This document shows positions 24,593 to 33,049 of a DNA stretch of 64,000 nucleotides, piece after piece. Positions within the stretch are counted from its first letter, which is position 1. Each line of letters starts with the position of its first letter. Below the pieces are notes generated by a model, which worked only from the letters and a program-made list of their open reading frames with translations, had not been told where the DNA came from and searched no databases. Made by a program: the position numbers and the translations under genes. The stretch is from assembly GCA_022791255.1 (NCBI GenBank), contig JAAVYR010000016.1:64497-128496 (forward strand), given 5' to 3'. The stretch is from Peptococcaceae bacterium. GTDB taxonomy: Bacteria > Bacillota > Dehalobacteriia > UBA4068 > JAAVYR01.

Positions 24593-25762
24593 TTATTTGG
24601 TCAGCCGCTCCATGGCCTTTTTGGTGTTTTCCGCCGTGTTAAAGGCAGTAAGGCGCAGATACCCTTCGCCATTTTTCCCAAAGCCGGAGCCAGGAGTCAC
24701 TACAATGTGATACTGCTCTAAGAGCACATCAAAGTATTCCCAAGAAGTCAGGCCGTCCGGGCAATGCAGCCAGATGTAGGGAGAATGGACCCCGCCGCAA
24801 TAGGAAATACCCAGCTTATCAAAGGCAGCCCCCATGACTTTGGCATTTTCCCGGTAGTGGGCGATGTTTTCTTTACACTGGGCCATGCCTTCCGGAGTAA
24901 AGACAGCTTCTGCTCCTCGCTGTACGATGTATGGCACCCCGTTAAATTTCGTGGTCTGTCGCCGCAGCCACATAGCATTTAAGGACGCGCCGTCTTTTAC
25001 CAATGCTTTTGGTACGATGGTATAACCGCAGCGTGTGCCGGTAAAGCCTGCTGTCTTAGAAAGAGAGCAAAGCTCGATGGCGCATTTTTCTGCCCCAGGG
25101 ATTTGATAAATAGAAGTAGGCAGCACAGGGTCGTTGATGAATGCTTCATATGCAGCGTCAAATAAGATAACCGCGTCATGAGCCAAGGCATATTCTACCC
25201 AAGCAGTTAATTGTTCTCTGTTATACACAGCCCCTGTAGGGTTATTTGGGGAGCAGATGTAGATGATATCCACATGTTCTTCCCCCGGCATCGGCAGGAA
25301 GCCGTTGGCAGCGTTAGCGTCTAAGAGCACCACTTTTCTGCCATCCATGATATTGGTATCTACATAAACAGGATATACAGGGTCCGGAACAGCTACAATA
25401 TTATTGGTAGAGAAAATATTTAAGATGTTGCCTACATCGCTTTTAGCACCGTCAGAAATGAAAATTTCATCCAGCGCCAGCTCTACACCTTTGCCGGCAT
25501 AATATTTAACGATAGCCTCTCTTAAGAAACCATAGCCTTGTTCATCGCCATAGCCGTGGAAGGTTTCGGCTTTGCCCATTTCAGCCACAGCCTTGGTCAT
25601 AGCATCGATAACCACAGGGACTAAAGGACGCGTCACATCGCCAATGCTCAAGCGAATAATTTCTGCATCTGGATGAGCCGCCGTATATTCCCGTTGTCTG
25701 CGGGCAACTTCTGTAAATAAATAGCTAGTCGCTAAGTTAGAAAAATTTTCATTTACCTTCAT
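24593..25762 (-). CDS. dapL: LL-diaminopimelate aminotransferase
   Basis: KVNENFSNLATSYLFTEV, LSIGD, IFISDGAK, CSPNNPTG, ILFDAAY, FNG, HYRENA and VTPGSGFG blocks match DapL. PLP-binding Lys in SLSKTAGFTG. Confidence 0.85.
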   Translation of the reverse strand: MKVNENFSNLATSYLFTEVARRQREYTAAHPDAEIIRLSIGDVTRPLVPVVIDAMTKAVAEMGKAETFHGYGDEQGYGFLREAIVKYYAGKGVELALDEIFISDGAKSDVGNILNIFSTNNIVAVPDPVYPVYVDTNIMDGRKVVLLDANAANGFLPMPGEEHVDIIYICSPNNPTGAVYNREQLTAWVEYALAHDAVILFDAAYEAFINDPVLPTSIYQIPGAEKCAIELCSLSKTAGFTGTRCGYTIVPKALVKDGASLNAMWLRRQTTKFNGVPYIVQRGAEAVFTPEGMAQCKENIAHYRENAKVMGAAFDKLGISYCGGVHSPYIWLHCPDGLTSWEYFDVLLEQYHIVVTPGSGFGKNGEGYLRLTAFNTAENTKKAMERLTK

Positions 25763-27415: not shown

Positions 27416-27850
27416 ATGGCATTATATAGTGAAAAAGTAATGGACCACTTCACCAATCCCCGCAATGTAGGCGAGTTGGAAAACGCTGACGGCGTAGGCG
27501 AAGTAGGCAACGCTAAGTGCGGCGATATTATGAAAATCTACTTAAAAATTGACGATAACATCATTACCGATGTGAAATTTAACACCTTTGGCTGTGGCAG
27601 CGCCATCGCTTCCTCTTCTATGGCTACGGAAATGATAAAAGGCAAGTCTATCGACGAAGCATTGGAACTGACCAACAAAGCAGTGGTAGAAGCATTAGAC
27701 GGCTTGCCGCCTCATAAAATCCACTGCTCCGTTCTAGCCGAAGAAGCAGTAAAAGCTGCCTTAAAAGACTACTATGACAAAAATAATATTCCTTATGATA
27801 AGGCACTTTTCCCAGACTGTGACTCCTGTGCCCATTGCGCCGACCACTAA
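27416..27850 (+). CDS. nifU: Fe-S cluster assembly scaffold (NifU/IscU N-terminal-domain type)
   Basis: Conserved GNAKCGD, FNTFGCGSAIASSS and HCSVLAEEA cysteine motifs. Confidence 0.85.
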   Translation: MALYSEKVMDHFTNPRNVGELENADGVGEVGNAKCGDIMKIYLKIDDNIITDVKFNTFGCGSAIASSSMATEMIKGKSIDEALELTNKAVVEALDGLPPHKIHCSVLAEEAVKAALKDYYDKNNIPYDKALFPDCDSCAHCADH

Positions 27851-27946
27851 AATAAGATAAAACCAAAAACTACCCCTTACCAAATCATTGCCGGTAAGAG
27901 GTAGTTTCTTTTTTACTACCCATTACCTACGCAAAGAAAAGAAGTA

Positions 27947-27975
27947 TTTTCCAGTATTGACAAGAGATAGTCATT
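27947..27975 (+). promoter_or_regulatory. strong sigma-A promoter with an extended -10
   Basis: TTGACA (27947-27952), 17-nt spacer, TGgTATTAT (27967-27975). Confidence 0.55.
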
Positions 27976-28042
27976 GTGGTATTATTTTTTATATCAAAAA
28001 TCCAAACGCTTATCAGCAAATGGGAAGAAAGGAAGACATTAC

Positions 28043-28135
28043 ATGACAGTAATCAACGGGAACAACATGAACATGTGCATGGCTATGATGATGCGGACCA
28101 AAGATTGCTGTATCATGCGATGCTTCATGCTCTAA
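28043..28135 (+). CDS. putative Met/Cys-rich leader peptide (30 aa)
   Basis: GAAAGGAAG ribosome-binding site 8 nt upstream. Product MTVINGNNMNMCMAMMMRTKDCCIMRCFML has 9 Met and 4 Cys in 30 codons. Sits between a strong promoter and a terminator/antiterminator structure. Confidence 0.45.
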   Translation: MTVINGNNMNMCMAMMMRTKDCCIMRCFML

Positions 28136-28174
28136 ATCAAGTTCCCATTAGCGGAAATTGATAACGAGGCTATC

Positions 28175-28227
28175 AAATGGAAATAGTAATCTTTGGAAGT
28201 CAACAAATCAGTGGCTTCCATTTTTTT
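28175..28227 (+). promoter_or_regulatory. putative transcription attenuator (mutually exclusive antiterminator and terminator)
   Basis: Terminator stem TGGAAG (28194-28199) pairs with CTTCCA (28215-28220), followed by TTTTTTT. Upstream AAATGGAA (28175-28182) can alternatively pair with TTCCATTT (28217-28224), which sequesters the 3' arm. Confidence 0.4.
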
Positions 28228-28289
28228 ATGCTTATTTTTTGTTAATCGTATAAATCATGCAAATCATGCAAGGAAAGAAGGTAGCTTTC

Positions 28290-28826
28290 ATGTTAGAAAT
28301 ATTATGGCACGGCAGAGGCGGACAGGGTGCTTTTACAGCAGCCCGTCTTCTAGGAGCCGCCTTTATCCAGACAGAGTCTGGCTTTGCCCTAGCCTTTCCC
28401 TCTTTCGGTCCAGAACGACGAGGCGCACCCATTCGTGCTTTTACTAAGTTAGATAAAAAGCCCATCACCAATCGCAGTGAAATAGAAAAAGCTGACTTTG
28501 TCATCTATCTAGACGATACCCTATTTCCTGGAGAAGCAGCTTTTGCAGAATTAAAGCCCAATGGCAAAATCCTCTTAAACACCAAAGAAACTTGGGAAGA
28601 TGAACAAATCATCACCATAGACGGCGATTGCTTAGCTACAGAAATCTTAGGCAGACCCATTACCAATACAGTCATGCTAGGCGTCATCTCCACACTGGCA
28701 CCGGAAATCACACTGGACCATCTTACCGCTGCTATTGCAAGCTATATGCCGCCGAAACTGCAGGGAAAAAATATTGCTTTGATAAAAGCCGCAGCTGAGA
28801 CCATCAGTAAGGAGGCCCATCAATGA
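28290..28826 (+). CDS. porG: 2-oxoacid:ferredoxin oxidoreductase, gamma subunit
   Basis: MLEILWHGRGGQGAFTAARLLG is the typical gamma-subunit N-terminus. The stop overlaps the next start. Confidence 0.8.
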   Translation: MLEILWHGRGGQGAFTAARLLGAAFIQTESGFALAFPSFGPERRGAPIRAFTKLDKKPITNRSEIEKADFVIYLDDTLFPGEAAFAELKPNGKILLNTKETWEDEQIITIDGDCLATEILGRPITNTVMLGVISTLAPEITLDHLTAAIASYMPPKLQGKNIALIKAAAETISKEAHQ

Positions 28827-29131
28827 TGAAAACACCCTATTTGCGAGCACACACGCCAAAGACTTTTGCCGACATCCCAGAGGCCACTGCTTATGAGGCG
28901 GGCTACCTAGTGACAAAAAATGCCGGCTGGCGTAATATGCGCCCCGTTATCGACCAAGATAAATGTATTGGCTGCCTCCAATGTTACCTGTATTGTCCAG
29001 AAGGCGTCATTGCAAAAGACACGGAAAACGAAAAAAAAGTAAAAATCGATTATGATTTTTGCAAAGGGTGCGGCATCTGCAGACGAATGTGCAAGCTAGA
29101 CGCCATCAGAATGGAGGCGGAAAAACAATGA
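28823..29131 (+). CDS. porD: 2-oxoacid:ferredoxin oxidoreductase, delta subunit (2x[4Fe-4S] ferredoxin)
   Basis: Two CxxCxxCxxxCP motifs (CIGCLQCYLYCP, CKGCGICRRMC). ATGA overlaps with both neighbours. Confidence 0.8.
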   Translation: MMKTPYLRAHTPKTFADIPEATAYEAGYLVTKNAGWRNMRPVIDQDKCIGCLQCYLYCPEGVIAKDTENEKKVKIDYDFCKGCGICRRMCKLDAIRMEAEKQ

Positions 29132-30303
29132 GTAACCCCCAGAAAAGAAAAGCCTTTTTGTCCGGGAATGAAGCATTTGCCGAGGGCATTCGTCTCGCTC
29201 GTCCCCAAGTAATTTCCGCCTATCCCATCACCCCGCAAACTTTAGTAGTAGAACGCCTCTCTGAAATGGTAGAAGACGAGAGTCTTGCAGCAGAGTTTAT
29301 CCATGTAGAGTCCGAACATTCCGCCCTTTCCTGTGCCATGGGAGCCTCTGCAGTAGGCGCCAGAGCCTTCACGGCTACTTCTTCTCAGGGGCTGCTTTAT
29401 ATGGCAGAGTGTCTGACTTACGCTTCTGGCGGGCGGTTCCCCATCGTGATGATGAACGCCAATCGAGCCACCGCCCTTCCCTGGAATATTTACGGCGACC
29501 AGCGAGACTCTCTCTCCCTCTTAGACTGCGGCTGGATACAAGCCTATGCAGAAAATGCCCAGGAGAGCCTGGACCTTGCGCTGATGAGTTATTACATCGC
29601 CGAGCACCCACAAGTCGCCACCCCCTTCATGGTCAATCTAGACGGTTTCGTCCTCACCCACACCTATGAGGTAGTACATATCCCAGACCAGGAGCAGGCA
29701 GACGCCTTTTTGCCGCCTTATGAGACGGAAAACAAATTAGACTTTGCCCACCCCAGAAACATGGGCTTCTCTGTAGGACCAGAGCTCAATGACGGCTTCA
29801 AATATAAAGAACATCTCGCCATGGTCCATGCCAAAGCCGTGATTGCAGAAGCAGAAGAGAAATTTGCTAAGATTTTCGGCAGAACCTATCCGGGCCTGAT
29901 TGAGACTTATCAGACAGAAGGCGCCGACTATATCCTGATTACCCTAGGCACCATTGCCGGACAGGTAAAAGATGTAGTAGAAACTTTAAGGGCAAAAGGG
30001 GAAAAGGTCGGCATGATACGCCTCCGCTATATGCGACCCTTCCCTAATGAGGAAATTGCCGCTGCCGTAACAGGCGCCACTGCTATCGGCGTCTTAGAAA
30101 AGGATATTTCCTTTGGCAATGAAGGCACGGTCTACACCAATGTAAATTCCGCCCTGCAAAAGACCGGTATATCCCTACCAACTTCTAACTATATCGGCGG
30201 CTTAGGCGGCAAGAATATTAGCCCTCAAGATATCGAGTGTATTTTCCAATCACTAAAAAAGAAATCCGCGCAAGTAAAATTCTTAGGGTTAGAGGAGGTG
30301 TAG
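29128..30303 (+). CDS. porA: 2-oxoacid:ferredoxin oxidoreductase, alpha subunit
   Basis: Start at MSNPQKRK overlapping the porD stop. FLSGNEAFAEGIRLARPQVISAYPITPQT and ESEHSALSCAMGASAVGARAFTATSSQGLLYM motifs. Confidence 0.85.
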   Translation: MSNPQKRKAFLSGNEAFAEGIRLARPQVISAYPITPQTLVVERLSEMVEDESLAAEFIHVESEHSALSCAMGASAVGARAFTATSSQGLLYMAECLTYASGGRFPIVMMNANRATALPWNIYGDQRDSLSLLDCGWIQAYAENAQESLDLALMSYYIAEHPQVATPFMVNLDGFVLTHTYEVVHIPDQEQADAFLPPYETENKLDFAHPRNMGFSVGPELNDGFKYKEHLAMVHAKAVIAEAEEKFAKIFGRTYPGLIETYQTEGADYILITLGTIAGQVKDVVETLRAKGEKVGMIRLRYMRPFPNEEIAAAVTGATAIGVLEKDISFGNEGTVYTNVNSALQKTGISLPTSNYIGGLGGKNISPQDIECIFQSLKKKSAQVKFLGLEEV

Positions 30304-30306
30304 CCG

Positions 30307-31200
30307 GTGACAATCAACGCGAAGAATATGACAGATACCGAGTTTTTCTATGGCCACAAGGGCTGTGCCGGCTGCGGCGGAAGCCTAGCCGTCCGCATCG
30401 CTCTGAAAGTCCTAGGAGAACGGTCTATTGCCGTGCTGCCGGCAGGCTGTATGTCTGCTGTGGGGTTTAATTTCCCCCAATTATGTTTTGGCAATAACGC
30501 CATCATCTCCACCTTTGCCGGCACTGCCTCTATGCTCACCGGCATTGCAGCAGGGTTACGGGCTCAGGGTGTGACAGATTTCCAGGCGGTAGGCTTTGCC
30601 GGGGATGGCGGTACGGCAGATATTGGTTTACAAGCCTTATCCGGTGCCATCGACCGTAACGATGATATTCTCTACATCTGCTATGATAACGAAGCATACA
30701 TGAATACAGGTATTCAGAAAAGCTCTCTCACTCCATATGGTGCCAAAACCACGACAACACCAGCAGGGAAACACATCCGCGGCAATCTGCGGCCCAAGAA
30801 AAATTTATTTGAAATCGTTGCCGCCCATGGGATCCCCTATGCCGCCACGGCCAGCGTAGGCGATCTCCCGGACTTTATGGCAAAGGTAGAAAAAGCCGCC
30901 ACTATCCGCGGCACCAAATACATCCATGTGATGGCGCCTTGTCCTACCGGCTGGGGCATTGCCACCGACGCTACGATTGACGCTGCCAGAGAAATGGTAG
31001 ATTGCGGCTTATGGTATTTAGCAGAATATGAAAACGGTACCTACACCTTAAATCGGAAACCGAAAAACTTTAGTGACATTGGCACCTACCTAAAAAACCA
31101 AGGCCGCTTCCGTCACCTAACAGACGATGATATCGCCGCTATTACAGAGACACGAGATAAAAAATGGCAACAGATTAACAAAAACTTTTTATATAGATAA
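30307..31200 (+). CDS. porB: 2-oxoacid:ferredoxin oxidoreductase, beta subunit (TPP-binding)
   Basis: GTG start 4 nt after the porA stop. GCAGCGG, GDGG and the TPP-binding fold. CPTGWG motif. Confidence 0.85.
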   Translation: MTINAKNMTDTEFFYGHKGCAGCGGSLAVRIALKVLGERSIAVLPAGCMSAVGFNFPQLCFGNNAIISTFAGTASMLTGIAAGLRAQGVTDFQAVGFAGDGGTADIGLQALSGAIDRNDDILYICYDNEAYMNTGIQKSSLTPYGAKTTTTPAGKHIRGNLRPKKNLFEIVAAHGIPYAATASVGDLPDFMAKVEKAATIRGTKYIHVMAPCPTGWGIATDATIDAAREMVDCGLWYLAEYENGTYTLNRKPKNFSDIGTYLKNQGRFRHLTDDDIAAITETRDKKWQQINKNFLYR

Positions 31201-31215
31201 TAGGAGGAACATAAC

Positions 31216-32565
31216 ATGACCGAACCGAAAAACAGACCAGATAATTCTTGTAAATATTGGAATGAGACACTGGAAACCATGCCCCATGCAGAACTGGAAA
31301 AACTCCAACTGGAACGACTCAAAGAAATGGTGGCTTTCGCCTATGAAAATGCCCCCTACTACAAACGGTCCTTTGATGCAGCAGGTGTAAAGCCAGAAGA
31401 TATCCAGAGTCTGGCAGACCTAGCCAAATTCCCTTTTATCGATAAGAAAACCCAGCGGGATACCCAAGGAGTCGGCTCCTTCCTGGGCGAACTATGCGCC
31501 GTACCGGAAGAAGATGTAGTCTTTATCTCCACCTCTAGTGGTTCCACAGGTGTTCCCACCATGAGCCCCTTCACCAAACAAGATTTTGACGAATTCCAAG
31601 ATACAGAAAGCCGCTGGTTTTGGCAAATCGGTATGCGCCCCAACGACCGTTATGTTCATGCCCTAAACTTCTCCCTCTATGTAGGCGGACCGGATGTTAT
31701 CGGCGCCCAAAACCTTGGTGCACTCTGCATCTGGGGCGGCACTCTTCCCAGCGAACGATTGCTTTTTGTGCTCAAGACATACCAACCTACCATCATCTGG
31801 ACCAGTCCTTCCTATGCTTGGTATTTAGGAGAAACCGCTAAGAAAAACGGCATCGACCCTAAGAAAGATTTAGCCATCCGCAAAATTATCGTAGCAGGAG
31901 AAGCAGGCGGCTCCATCCCTGCCACGCGCAAAGCCATCGAAGACCTCTGGGGAGCAGAGCTCTATGACTTCTATGGATTATCCGATATTTTCGGCGCTTG
32001 CGCTGCTATGTGCGAAGCCAAAGACGGTCTCCACATTGCCGAAGACCAAATCTTAGTAGAAACCGTTGATATTAACACTGGCGAAGTGCTGCCGGCTGGC
32101 TCTGTAGGAGAATTAGTTTACACCACTTTACGGAAACATGCCCGCCCGATGATACGGTTCCGCACCGGCGATATTGGCTGGATAGATAACACCCCTTGCA
32201 GCTGCGGCCGCACCCATGGCCGCATTCACATCCAAGGCCGCAAAGACGATATGTTCATTGTCTCTGCTGTAAATGTATTCCCTAGCGACATTGAAGCAGT
32301 ACTCCGAGGCCTTAAAGGCATTACCGGGGAATACTTGGTTCGCATCTTTGAAAAAGACCTTACCTGCAAATATGCAGTAGAAATCGAAAAAACCAGTGAC
32401 AACACGGAAACTGATGATGAAGTCGCAAAACGGGTTTCTGCAGCACTAAAAGGCAGAATAGGCGTAAAACCATATACCGTCACCGTTCATCCCGACGGCG
32501 GCCTGGACACCCGCTCCGAACATAAGGCAAAACGGGTTATCGACGAGCGAACCACTCGTGTATGA
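31216..32565 (+). CDS. phenylacetate-CoA ligase family protein (PaaK / F390-synthetase-like adenylate-forming enzyme)
   Basis: N-terminal LERLKEMVAFAYENAPYYKR, AMP-binding SSGSTGVPT and a C-terminal PaaK-type domain. Co-transcribed with porGDAB. Confidence 0.8.
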   Translation: MTEPKNRPDNSCKYWNETLETMPHAELEKLQLERLKEMVAFAYENAPYYKRSFDAAGVKPEDIQSLADLAKFPFIDKKTQRDTQGVGSFLGELCAVPEEDVVFISTSSGSTGVPTMSPFTKQDFDEFQDTESRWFWQIGMRPNDRYVHALNFSLYVGGPDVIGAQNLGALCIWGGTLPSERLLFVLKTYQPTIIWTSPSYAWYLGETAKKNGIDPKKDLAIRKIIVAGEAGGSIPATRKAIEDLWGAELYDFYGLSDIFGACAAMCEAKDGLHIAEDQILVETVDINTGEVLPAGSVGELVYTTLRKHARPMIRFRTGDIGWIDNTPCSCGRTHGRIHIQGRKDDMFIVSAVNVFPSDIEAVLRGLKGITGEYLVRIFEKDLTCKYAVEIEKTSDNTETDDEVAKRVSAALKGRIGVKPYTVTVHPDGGLDTRSEHKAKRVIDERTTRV

Positions 32566-32576
32566 TGAAAATAATA

Positions 32577-32612
32577 TAAAAAAGAGACTGCAATTTTTTG
32601 CAGTCTCTTTTT
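32577..32612 (+). terminator. rho-independent terminator of the por/paaK operon
   Basis: AAAAAGAGACTGCAA-tttttt-GCAGTCTCTTTTTTATT. Confidence 0.55.
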
Positions 32613-32674
32613 TATTGGTATGCTTTTATAAAAAAACATCCATACAGAACCATCTGTATGGATGCAAGAATGCT

Positions 32675-32750
<76 letters not shown>

Positions 32751-32753
32751 ATA

Positions 32754-32838
<85 letters not shown>

Positions 32839-32860
32839 ATATAAAATAAGTTTTAAGAAT

Positions 32861-32936
32861 TGGAGCCGAAGATGGGACTCGAACCCGCAACCTGCTGATT
32901 ACAAATCAGCTGCTCTGCCAATTGAGCTACTTCGGC
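32861..32936 (-). tRNA. tRNA-Thr (anticodon TGT)
   Basis: GCCGAAGTAGCTCAATTGGCAGAGCAGCTGATTTGTAATCAGCAGGTTGCGGGTTCGAGTCCCATCTTCGGCTCCA. Confidence 0.85.
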
Positions 32937-33049
32937 TTACTTCAGAACAAAAGTTATTATATCAGTCTTTTCCCTATTTGTCAACGGAATATCTGAGAAA
33001 CATAAAATTTTTCCCGCCTAAATCATAAAATACCCGGCAGCCATCATCC

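Follow-up and report, generated by a model that had tools for sequence, protein, structure and literature searches.

The leader region between nifU and porG

The window, by which we mean the whole 64,000-nucleotide (nt) stretch analysed here (Peptococcaceae bacterium, assembly GCA_022791255.1, contig JAAVYR010000016.1, positions 64,497 to 128,496 of the forward strand), contains in this order nifS, nifU, a short leader, porG, porD, porA, porB and a gene for a PaaK-like ligase, as had been stated in a first-pass annotation made from the sequence alone. The 440-nt gap between nifU and porG, read from the sequence, holds a promoter, a Shine–Dalgarno (SD) sequence, a leader open reading frame (ORF) rich in Met and Cys codons and a terminator. 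The annotation had proposed that these parts form a ribosome-mediated attenuator of the por/CoA-ligase operon, and our comparison supports the proposal, since the ORF, the SD and the terminator are conserved in relatives. Judged by this comparison, the element is a real, conserved cis-regulatory element. Our preferred reading, to which we assign a probability of about 0.7, is an attenuator of the trpL/hisL type that would sense Met (probably also Cys) codons and give read-through on starvation. The parts of the leader are the following:

27957 to 27985, forward strand: sigma-A-type promoter (TTGACA at 27957-27962, 17-nt spacer, TATTAT at 27980-27985)
28027 to 28035, forward strand: SD sequence GAAAGGAAG, 7 nt 5' of the leader AUG at 28043
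28043 to 28135, forward strand: leader ORF, 30 codons plus stop, encoding MTVINGNNMNMCMAMMMRTKDCCIMRCFML
28067 to 28093, forward strand: putative sensor cluster, codons 9-17 (AUG AAC AUG UGC AUG GCU AUG AUG AUG; 6 Met, 1 Cys)
28194 to 28227, forward strand: intrinsic terminator, UGGAAGUCA (28194-28202) pairing with UGGCUUCCA (28212-28220) over 9 bp, then a run of seven U (U7, 28221-28227)

The promoter agrees with the consensus at 11 of 12 positions, has in addition the TG of an extended −10 element at 27977-27978 (TGgTATTAT) and is the top-scoring site of the region, so its earlier description as near-consensus holds. The SD is also present as described, but it starts about 42 nt downstream of the −10 box and not about 65. 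The leader ORF was read correctly in the first pass, with 9 Met and 4 Cys among its 30 codons. It ranks first by Met fraction and by Met+Cys fraction among the 510 ORFs of the window that begin with ATG and encode at least 20 amino acids (aa). Nine ATG codons are reached in just 2 of the approximately 128,000 thirty-codon frames of the window, both of which are the leader ORF, and 9 of the 10 ATG triplets within it are in frame. As in attenuators of the trpL/hisL type, an intrinsic terminator follows the leader ORF and precedes the first structural gene. Its hairpin (−10.9 kcal/mol) had been described as shorter than the 9 bp found here; with its U7 the terminator lies 62 nt 5' of the porG ATG (28290). 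A consensus scan missed the terminator solely due to its 9-nt loop.

Conservation of the leader in Clostridia

PorG relatives were taken from genome contigs and, via homologues, from public assemblies. A Met/Cys-rich leader ORF with a terminator heads the same operon in at least five diverged lineages of Clostridia. Relatives whose PorG is just 63-91% identical still have all three parts, namely ORF, ribosome-binding site and terminator. The window clade comprises five lineages (PorG 69-91% identical to that of the window) in which the 30-codon ORF, the SD, the promoter and the terminator are all kept. More specifically, the −35 box and the TG-n-TA..AT motif of the promoter are retained in L081, L001, L091 and L095, and equivalent promoters precede the leaders of L105, L107, L002 and L005. 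The SD core (G)AAAGGA(G/A) is without change across the eight leaders aligned (alignment A3). At the level of sequence, the leader has the short 5' ORF with a putative ribosome-binding site that is known from the trpL/hisL type, promoter and SD being kept in all lineages. Genes upstream of the leader vary within the window clade: L001 and L081 have nifU there and L091 has sigma/anti-sigma factor genes.

Homologues outside the window clade were recognised via alignment A3. They have 34 codons in L105 and L107, 35 in L002 and 31 in L005. The L105 leader (Lachnospiraceae type), MTTITLNREMMCMHMCMKIQSRGCCIMRCCMTRM, stands immediately 5' of porG. That of L107/L108 (Anaerosporobacter sp., Lachnospiraceae type), MTTITFIREKMCIHMCMMMQSKGCCIMQCCMTRM, lies 3 kb 5' of porG, before an SsuA-like ABC transporter that heads the operon, and in L002 (Ruminococcaceae UBA2806) the leader MAKTTVKTMCMCMNRCMCMTQEAVFCVRACCAFRM precedes an ECF-S-like gene, an ABC transporter and porG. 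Ruminococcus loci L005, L006 and L015 carry MTTYATMCMNTFMCKKQRAFFCVVACCALRM. Each of the L105, L107/L108, L002 and L005-type leaders is followed by a hairpin and a U-tract homologous to the window terminator. The leader thus stays at the 5' end of the operon whichever gene comes first, porG or the SsuA-like ABC transporter. L103 has the same operon without the leader and with a LysR-type gene upstream instead.

A HMMER search with the 30-aa peptide as query gave a sole match among 1.84 billion representative proteins, P0130, which is a sixth variant of 32 aa (MKAINHRNMNMNMRMAMMMQTKDCCIMRYFMR). When the window peptide and eight variants were looked up exactly in a 15-billion-protein collection, P0130 alone was recorded (1 of 9). 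The leader family is invisible in current annotation, and gene callers almost never report such ORFs. Two scans of JGI metagenomes, one with the degenerate pattern MMMRTKDCC and one with the terminator plus the antiterminator 3' strand (region 3, described below), returned 0 matches each.

Some further observations concern incomplete or atypical leaders. A Lachnospiraceae metagenome-assembled genome (L012, 2004-2030) has an 8-codon mini-ORF, MKMCLMRM, with a good SD, located 5' of a substrate-binding protein (SBP) gene and with no obvious terminator. This mini-ORF ends with CGA AUG UGA (RM-stop), as do the leaders of L002, L005, L105 and L107, and may be a leader that has degenerated or acts at the level of translation. 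The Logan contigs L085-L089, L101 and L102, which come from different samples, all start at one base inside the leader (GCTGTATCATGCG...), and the 5' end of L083 (1-55) is unrelated to the leader. It seems that assembly graphs break in the nucleotide-invariant leader core common to co-occurring strains.

Selection on codons

No lineage of the window clade has changed Met codons 9, 11, 13, 15, 16, 17 or 29. Twelve of the 21 non-Met sense codons vary in this clade, 11 of the 12 non-synonymously and non-conservatively, and even the codons interleaved in the Met cluster change non-synonymously while Met stays. The changes outside Met and the Cys-Cys (CC) motif include N/H/C, G/R, A/M/D, F/P and L/R. 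Variable sites fall on the first, second and third codon positions 9, 5 and 7 times, respectively, i.e. there is no third-position bias. From L105 to L107 codons 10 and 13 lose Met and codons 18 and 19 acquire it, the total being constant at 9, and this turnover proceeds through in-frame, single-base changes. In P0130 the cluster is enlarged to 7 Met. The Met turnover between L105 and L107 reads as the signature of selection on codon content and not on the peptide. Leaders of the trpL/hisL type likewise have clustered codons for the amino acid that they sense, kept as codons rather than as a peptide. A comparative alignment had been named earlier as a check of the attenuator; it gave a Met/Cys-rich ORF with synonymous drift (codons 3, 4 and 6) and conserved alternative pairings.

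These patterns bear on the possibility that the product of the ORF is what matters, namely a functional Met/Cys-rich micropeptide (metal- or sulfur-binding, or the precursor of a ribosomally synthesised and post-translationally modified peptide, RiPP) that is co-transcribed with the operon, the hairpin being an ordinary leaky terminator. The Cys/Met-rich composition, the CC motif in all leader types, the proximity of the window ORF to nifS/nifU and a small DCC-repeat lipoprotein in the same operon of some relatives would fit such a product. However, residues besides Met and CC vary freely and non-conservatively with no third-position bias, the nifU neighbourhood is not kept in relatives, there are no maturation enzymes nearby, and the CC codons coincide exactly with the UGCUGU core of an RNA pairing region. 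Neither purifying selection on the peptide nor maturation or partner genes, both expected of a small protein or RiPP, were seen. The exact peptides (bar P0130) are also missing from the 15-billion-protein collection, which reflects annotation and is not a test of expression. We consider a micropeptide very improbable.

Regarding the sensed amino acids, the earlier proposal of Met/Cys stands for Met, which is universal, and needs to be weakened for Cys. Cys is plentiful in the sensor clusters of L002, L005, L105 and L107 (MCMCM, MCMHMCM) and missing from those of L095 and P0130. The sole universal Cys pair is encoded by the UGCUGU motif, which is at the same time the core of the pairing region. 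Because Cys codons beyond this structural motif are dispensable in L095 and P0130, the sequences point to Met as the universal signal and to Cys as a probable second one.

Competing pairings of the leader RNA

The strands that take part in the predicted folds are these:

28042 to 28054, forward strand: region 1, CAUGACAGUAAUC, which includes the start codon and pairs with 28103-28117 (anti-antiterminator, helix 1:2)
28089 to 28111, forward strand: region 2, UGAUGCGGACCAAAGAUUGCUGU, the antiterminator 5' strand (ORF nt 47-69, codons 16-23)
28105 to 28129, forward strand: 3' half of the ORF, UUGCUGUAUCAUGCGAUGCUUCAUG, pairing with the Met cluster at 28066-28096 (helix 1':2', CAUG with CAUG), an alternative anti-antiterminator
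28140 to 28159, forward strand: hairpin in the spacer after the ORF (28140-28146 with 28153-28159), predicted by RNAalifold
28175 to 28182, forward strand: AAATGGAA, the antiterminator strand of the first-pass annotation, with its partner TTCCATTT at 28216-28223
28183 to 28202, forward strand: region 3, AUAGUAAUCUUUGGAAGUCA (AUAGUAAUCUUUGG..GUCA), the antiterminator 3' strand, which contains the entire 5' arm of the terminator

Pairing of region 2 (UGAU...CCAAAGAUUGCUGU) with region 3 is the best duplex between the ORF and the sequence downstream of it. Its energy is −25.8 kcal/mol as compared to −12.6 ± 2.5 kcal/mol for dinucleotide shuffles (z = −5.3; 1 of 2000 as good). In five window-clade lineages the pairing spans all 9 nt of the terminator 5' arm, and the terminator hairpin retains −3.1 kcal/mol once the antiterminator takes its three basal pairs. 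CCAAAGAUU and AAUCUUUGG are the partner strands of the proposed antiterminator pairing. The 14-bp core of helix 2:3 is paired in 96% of the alignment cells, and changes in region 3 are mostly from G-U to G-C. The terminator stem is paired in 100% of the cells over 7 lineages; its basal pair is U-A in the window and G-C in L002. The non-coding segment AAUCUUUGGAAGUCA of region 3 is invariant in 7 of 7 lineages with variable flanks. On the coding side the core of region 2, CCAAAGAUUGCUGU, is nucleotide-invariant in the window clade, and UUGCUGU is common to all leader types. We explain this invariance by the fact that one stretch must code and pair with two partners.

Two helices could keep region 2 away from region 3. 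Helix 1:2 has 13 bp, 92% of its alignment cells are paired, and 3 of 3 one-sided changes keep a pair. Its duplex energy is −13.0 kcal/mol against −7.6 ± 1.7 kcal/mol for shuffles (14 of 2000 as good). Helix 1':2' is the RNAalifold consensus fold of the five window-clade sequences. In the spacer hairpin two pairs stay paired despite changes on both sides. Taken as global folds, the three states are iso-energetic: helix 1:2 with the terminator gives −46.8, helix 1':2' with the terminator −45.7 and the antiterminator −47.2 kcal/mol. The z-score of the minimum free energy of the whole leader is an unremarkable −1.8, which is what one expects of a bistable element. Comparison of the lineages indicates that the alternative pairings are conserved among relatives.

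The antiterminator proposed in the first pass, AAATGGAA with TTCCATTT, can form, but 2-3 of 7 lineages have lost its G-C pairs and it is much weaker than the pairing of 28089-28111 with 28183-28202. We do not retain it as the main antiterminator.

Note also that the ORF contains five CATG palindromes, which permit the CAUG:CAUG pairing between the Met cluster and the 3' half of the ORF. As a by-product of these palindromes an antisense ORF of 29 aa with 6 Met occurs at 28039-28128 on the reverse strand.

The nucleotide conservation of the ORF core exceeds coding needs, and the AUG triplets recur with a 6-nt period, in addition to the five CAUG palindromes. Such features could also belong to an element that acts as RNA only, for example an unrecognised riboswitch or a TRAP-like protein site on spaced AUG/CAUG repeats, for which the ORF would be incidental. 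Against this stand the strong, conserved and correctly spaced SD, the ATG triplets in frame (9 of 10), an ORF length kept within each clade together with synonymous drift at codons 3, 4 and 6, and the turnover of Met codons through in-frame single-base changes. Furthermore, the overall fold is not unusually stable and no Rfam model matches it. Rfam searches at gathering and at E-value thresholds gave no family for the leader; tRNAs alone were found in the window, with no riboswitch or T-box. The best match in 27800-28350 was an unrelated small RNA at 25.8 bits against a gathering score of 50, and no family was found in 21 related loci. The leader is not an S-box, a T-box or another Rfam family. 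An RNA-only element seems to us improbable.

The por operon and its possible substrate

Genes of the operon were assigned by Pfam and NCBIfam matches:

28290 to 32565, forward strand: operon of porG (28290-28826), porD (28823-29131), porA (approximately 29128-30303), porB (30307-31200) and a PaaK-family AMP-forming ligase (31216-32565)

All subunits score under the NCBIfam equivalog cut-offs, which therefore assign no substrate specificity. In relatives the operon adds an SsuA-family SBP, ABC transporter subunits and a class I/II aminotransferase, whose N-terminal fragment scores best against methionine aminotransferase. Neighbours of the L105 operon encode cystathionine gamma-lyase-like and cysteine synthase/CBS-like proteins, a methyltransferase and a CymR/IscR-like Rrf2 regulator. 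AMP-forming ligases adjoining 2-oxoacid:ferredoxin oxidoreductases (OFORs) have been interpreted as anabolic (PMC13285125), and rumen microbes carboxylate short acids to amino-acid precursors (PMC7356843). The literature searches gave nothing relevant on reductive carboxylation of 3-methylthiopropionate.

A system made up of importer, AMP-forming ligase, OFOR and aminotransferase would, by its gene content, lead from acid to acyl-CoA, 2-oxoacid and amino acid. The CoA ligase (AMP-forming) would activate the acid, the OFOR would carboxylate it reductively with ferredoxin, and transamination would follow. Most likely the operon supplies methionine from an imported organic acid; methionine or homocysteine as the product would fit the leader. 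The conversion of a methylthio acid via a 2-oxoacid to Met, a possible role already raised in the first-pass annotation, would draw indirect support from the gene context in relatives. In its widest form the reading is tentative: the leader would be the first of a Clostridia family (apparently from gut and rumen samples) of ribosome-mediated attenuators that sense sulfur amino acids, and it would mark an unrecognised route to Met. In this possible route an organosulfur acid (3-methylthiopropionate or 3-mercaptopropionate) would be imported by the SsuA-like system, activated by the PaaK-family ligase, carboxylated reductively with ferredoxin to a 2-oxoacid by the four-subunit OFOR and transaminated to Met or homocysteine.

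An aminotransferase encoded 5' of nifS (24593-25762, reverse strand) was considered as the missing transaminase of the por pathway and rejected, as it is LL-diaminopimelate aminotransferase (TIGR03542, 535 bits, above cut-off). PorB and the PaaK-like protein are called as one 742-aa product in L107 (5986-8214) and as two genes in L108 (5986-6876 and 6929-8260), a discrepancy that probably stems from assembly or from a frameshift. A small lipoprotein-like ORF of 59-78 aa, which has three spaced DCC/ECC/SCC motifs and matches no NCBIfam model, separates the leader/terminator from the SsuA-like SBP gene in L005 (1858-2094), in the equivalent loci of L006 and L015, and in L010 (1845-2024). Its product could bind a metal or a sulfur compound as an accessory of the transporter.

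Ribosome position and the proposed mechanism

We infer translation of the leader and the polarity of its response from the arrangement of codons and pairing strands. The transcript would start at the 27957-27985 promoter and its 30-codon leader would be translated, and the 9-bp/U7 terminator at 28194-28227 would end most transcripts before porG. In the terminator state region 2 would be held either by the start-codon region (helix 1:2) or by the Met cluster (helix 1':2'), so that the terminator can form. In the antiterminator state region 2 (28089-28111) would pair with 28183-28202 and capture the entire 5' arm of the terminator. If charged Met-tRNA (possibly also Cys-tRNA) is scarce, the ribosome is expected to stall in codons 9-15, where it occupies regions 1 and 1' and leaves region 2 free; the antiterminator would then form and RNA polymerase would enter the operon. 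With an ample supply the ribosome would cross region 2 and reach the stop codon, the anti-antiterminator would re-form, followed by the terminator, and the operon would be off. The model predicts that changing CCAAAGAUU to GGUUUCUAA turns the operon off and that a compensatory change in AAUCUUUGG restores it.

Masking of the ribosome footprint behaves as expected for an attenuator in the window, L081, L002 and L005. With the ribosome modelled at codons 9-11 of the window leader, the equilibrium probability of helix 2:3 is 0.74 and that of the terminator 0.02, and the antiterminator dominates in L081 in the same way. Once the modelled ribosome has reached codon 16, the terminator forms with a probability of 1.0. 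The canonical trpL geometry is seen in L002 and L005, where the antiterminator 5' strand (UGCUGU...) is located just 5' of the stop codon: the strand is free with the ribosome in the Met/Cys cluster and covered with the ribosome at the last codons. A co-transcriptional proxy, i.e. pairing of the terminator 5' arm before its 3' arm emerges, was noisy in the window clade and clear in L002 and L005 only. Folding with hard constraints, in which helices close around the stalled ribosome, was judged physically unrealistic and set aside.

The same parts could also work with the opposite polarity. A ribosome stalled on the Met run (codons 15-17; 17-19 in L107) would cover the antiterminator 5' strand and cause termination, fast translation would give the antiterminator, and the operon would be induced by Met for its catabolism (Met to 2-oxo-4-methylthiobutyrate, acyl-CoA and acid). 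Consistent with such an arrangement, codons 16-17 are part of the antiterminator strand via UGAU:GUCA pairs, the AUGAUGAUG run of L107 lies within a long helix, and the modelled ribosome at codon 16 or later gives the terminator with a probability of 1.0, as mentioned above. However, the Met codons that a ribosome reaches earliest (9, 11 and 13) leave region 2 free, and L002 and L005 have the canonical geometry in which starvation leads to read-through. The SBP-dependent ABC importers and the AMP-forming ligase suggest uptake and activation, that is an anabolic role. Moreover, there is no obvious ON state in this scheme, as with helix 1:2 or 1':2' free or absent translation already terminates. 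We think that Met induction is unlikely, and read-through on starvation remains the preferred polarity.

Several points weigh against read-through on starvation and the attenuator behind it. No helix shows strong two-sided covariation, region 2 being invariant and the number of lineages small. The simple competition model fails in L107, where the long helix between the ORF and the pre-terminator segment shares just 1 nt with the terminator. The shift caused by stalling is small or inconsistent in L001, L091 and L095 in the equilibrium model. In the window clade codons 16-17 of the Met run lie inside the antiterminator 5' strand and a stall there favours termination; therefore only stalls at codons 9-15 would give read-through. 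Similarly, Cys 22/23 fall within region 2, and a Cys stall there would terminate. The operon of the window lacks the transporter and aminotransferase genes of its relatives. Finally, transcription and translation are reportedly uncoupled in Bacillus subtilis, and if this is also true here, ribosome-based attenuation becomes harder.

Other features of the locus

A long hairpin of 19 pairs at 27865-27909, after nifU, is flanked by A-runs and T-runs and resembles a bidirectional intrinsic terminator; it sets the nifSU transcript apart from the leader promoter. A tandem 9-nt duplication, AAATCATGC AAATCATGC, occupies 28251-28268, 3' of the leader terminator and 5' of the porG ribosome-binding site. 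It was dropped as a candidate binding site before porG, none of the relatives having the insertion, and more probably reflects recent slippage than regulation. A cluster of tRNA-Met(CAT), tRNA-Tyr and tRNA-Thr genes (32675-32936, reverse strand) lies directly 3' of the PaaK-like gene. The 156-aa ORF overlapping it (32558-33028) has no Pfam match and is spurious.

Comparison with known systems

Leader-peptide attenuation is a textbook mechanism that has been described for Trp, His, Phe, Leu, Thr and Ile/Val, and for Cys in Actinobacteria. Met genes of Firmicutes are controlled by SAM (S-adenosylmethionine) riboswitches and T-boxes, and leader-peptide attenuation is considered rare in this phylum. 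No description of a Met leader peptide or an AUG-codon attenuator was found in the literature searched. If our reading is true, a conserved Met(/Cys) attenuator in several families of Clostridia adds a new specificity and shows that ribosome-based sensing works in the phylum. The leader would also serve as a functional label, which ties a widespread unassigned operon (ABC importer, OFOR, PaaK-like ligase and aminotransferase) to the supply of sulfur amino acids. It offers the hypothesis that organic acids might serve anaerobes, e.g. those of gut and rumen, as a source from which to salvage methionine.

The element resembles trpL, hisL, pheL, leuL, thrL and ilvL of E. coli in having a promoter-proximal short ORF, a cluster of putative sensor codons and an intrinsic terminator before the structural genes. 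As is known from these attenuators, the predicted 1:2, 2:3 and 3:4 pairings, which are of similar energy, would exclude one another and the position of the ribosome would select the fold. It differs from them in the codon (AUG plus UGY), in the host (Clostridia), in the genes (an OFOR/CoA-ligase module and not canonical biosynthesis) and in having no sequence or Rfam similarity to them. In addition, two geometries occur within the present family, with the stop codon adjoining the antiterminator strand or far from it.

In bacilli a histidine leader peptide is located 5' of hisS paralogues/hisZ, and leader peptides are described as rare in Firmicutes (Naville & Gautheret 2010, PMC2965389). Both cases would pair a conventional amino-acid leader peptide with a terminator in a phylum that usually relies on T-boxes and riboswitches for this task. 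The amino acid, the genes and the taxa are different, and there is no homology. Leader ORFs with Cys codons are found 5' of cys/cbs operons in Mycobacterium, Propionibacterium and Bifidobacterium (Seliverstov et al. 2005, PMC1262725). They have no recognisable intrinsic terminator, and Rho or translational mechanisms have been proposed for them (PMC1262725). Like these, the leader described here is a short upstream ORF rich in a sulfur-amino-acid codon that would control sulfur-amino-acid metabolism. Unlike these, which have Cys-only runs near the stop codon, it is dominated by Met and has a clear terminator/antiterminator pair.

The S-box (SAM-I), the SMK-box and the Met T-box of Firmicutes share with our element the genomic position and the proposed outcome, i.e. 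Met-responsive premature termination. They sense SAM or uncharged tRNA-Met by RNA and without translation, whereas here the sensing would be done by a ribosome on a translated ORF.

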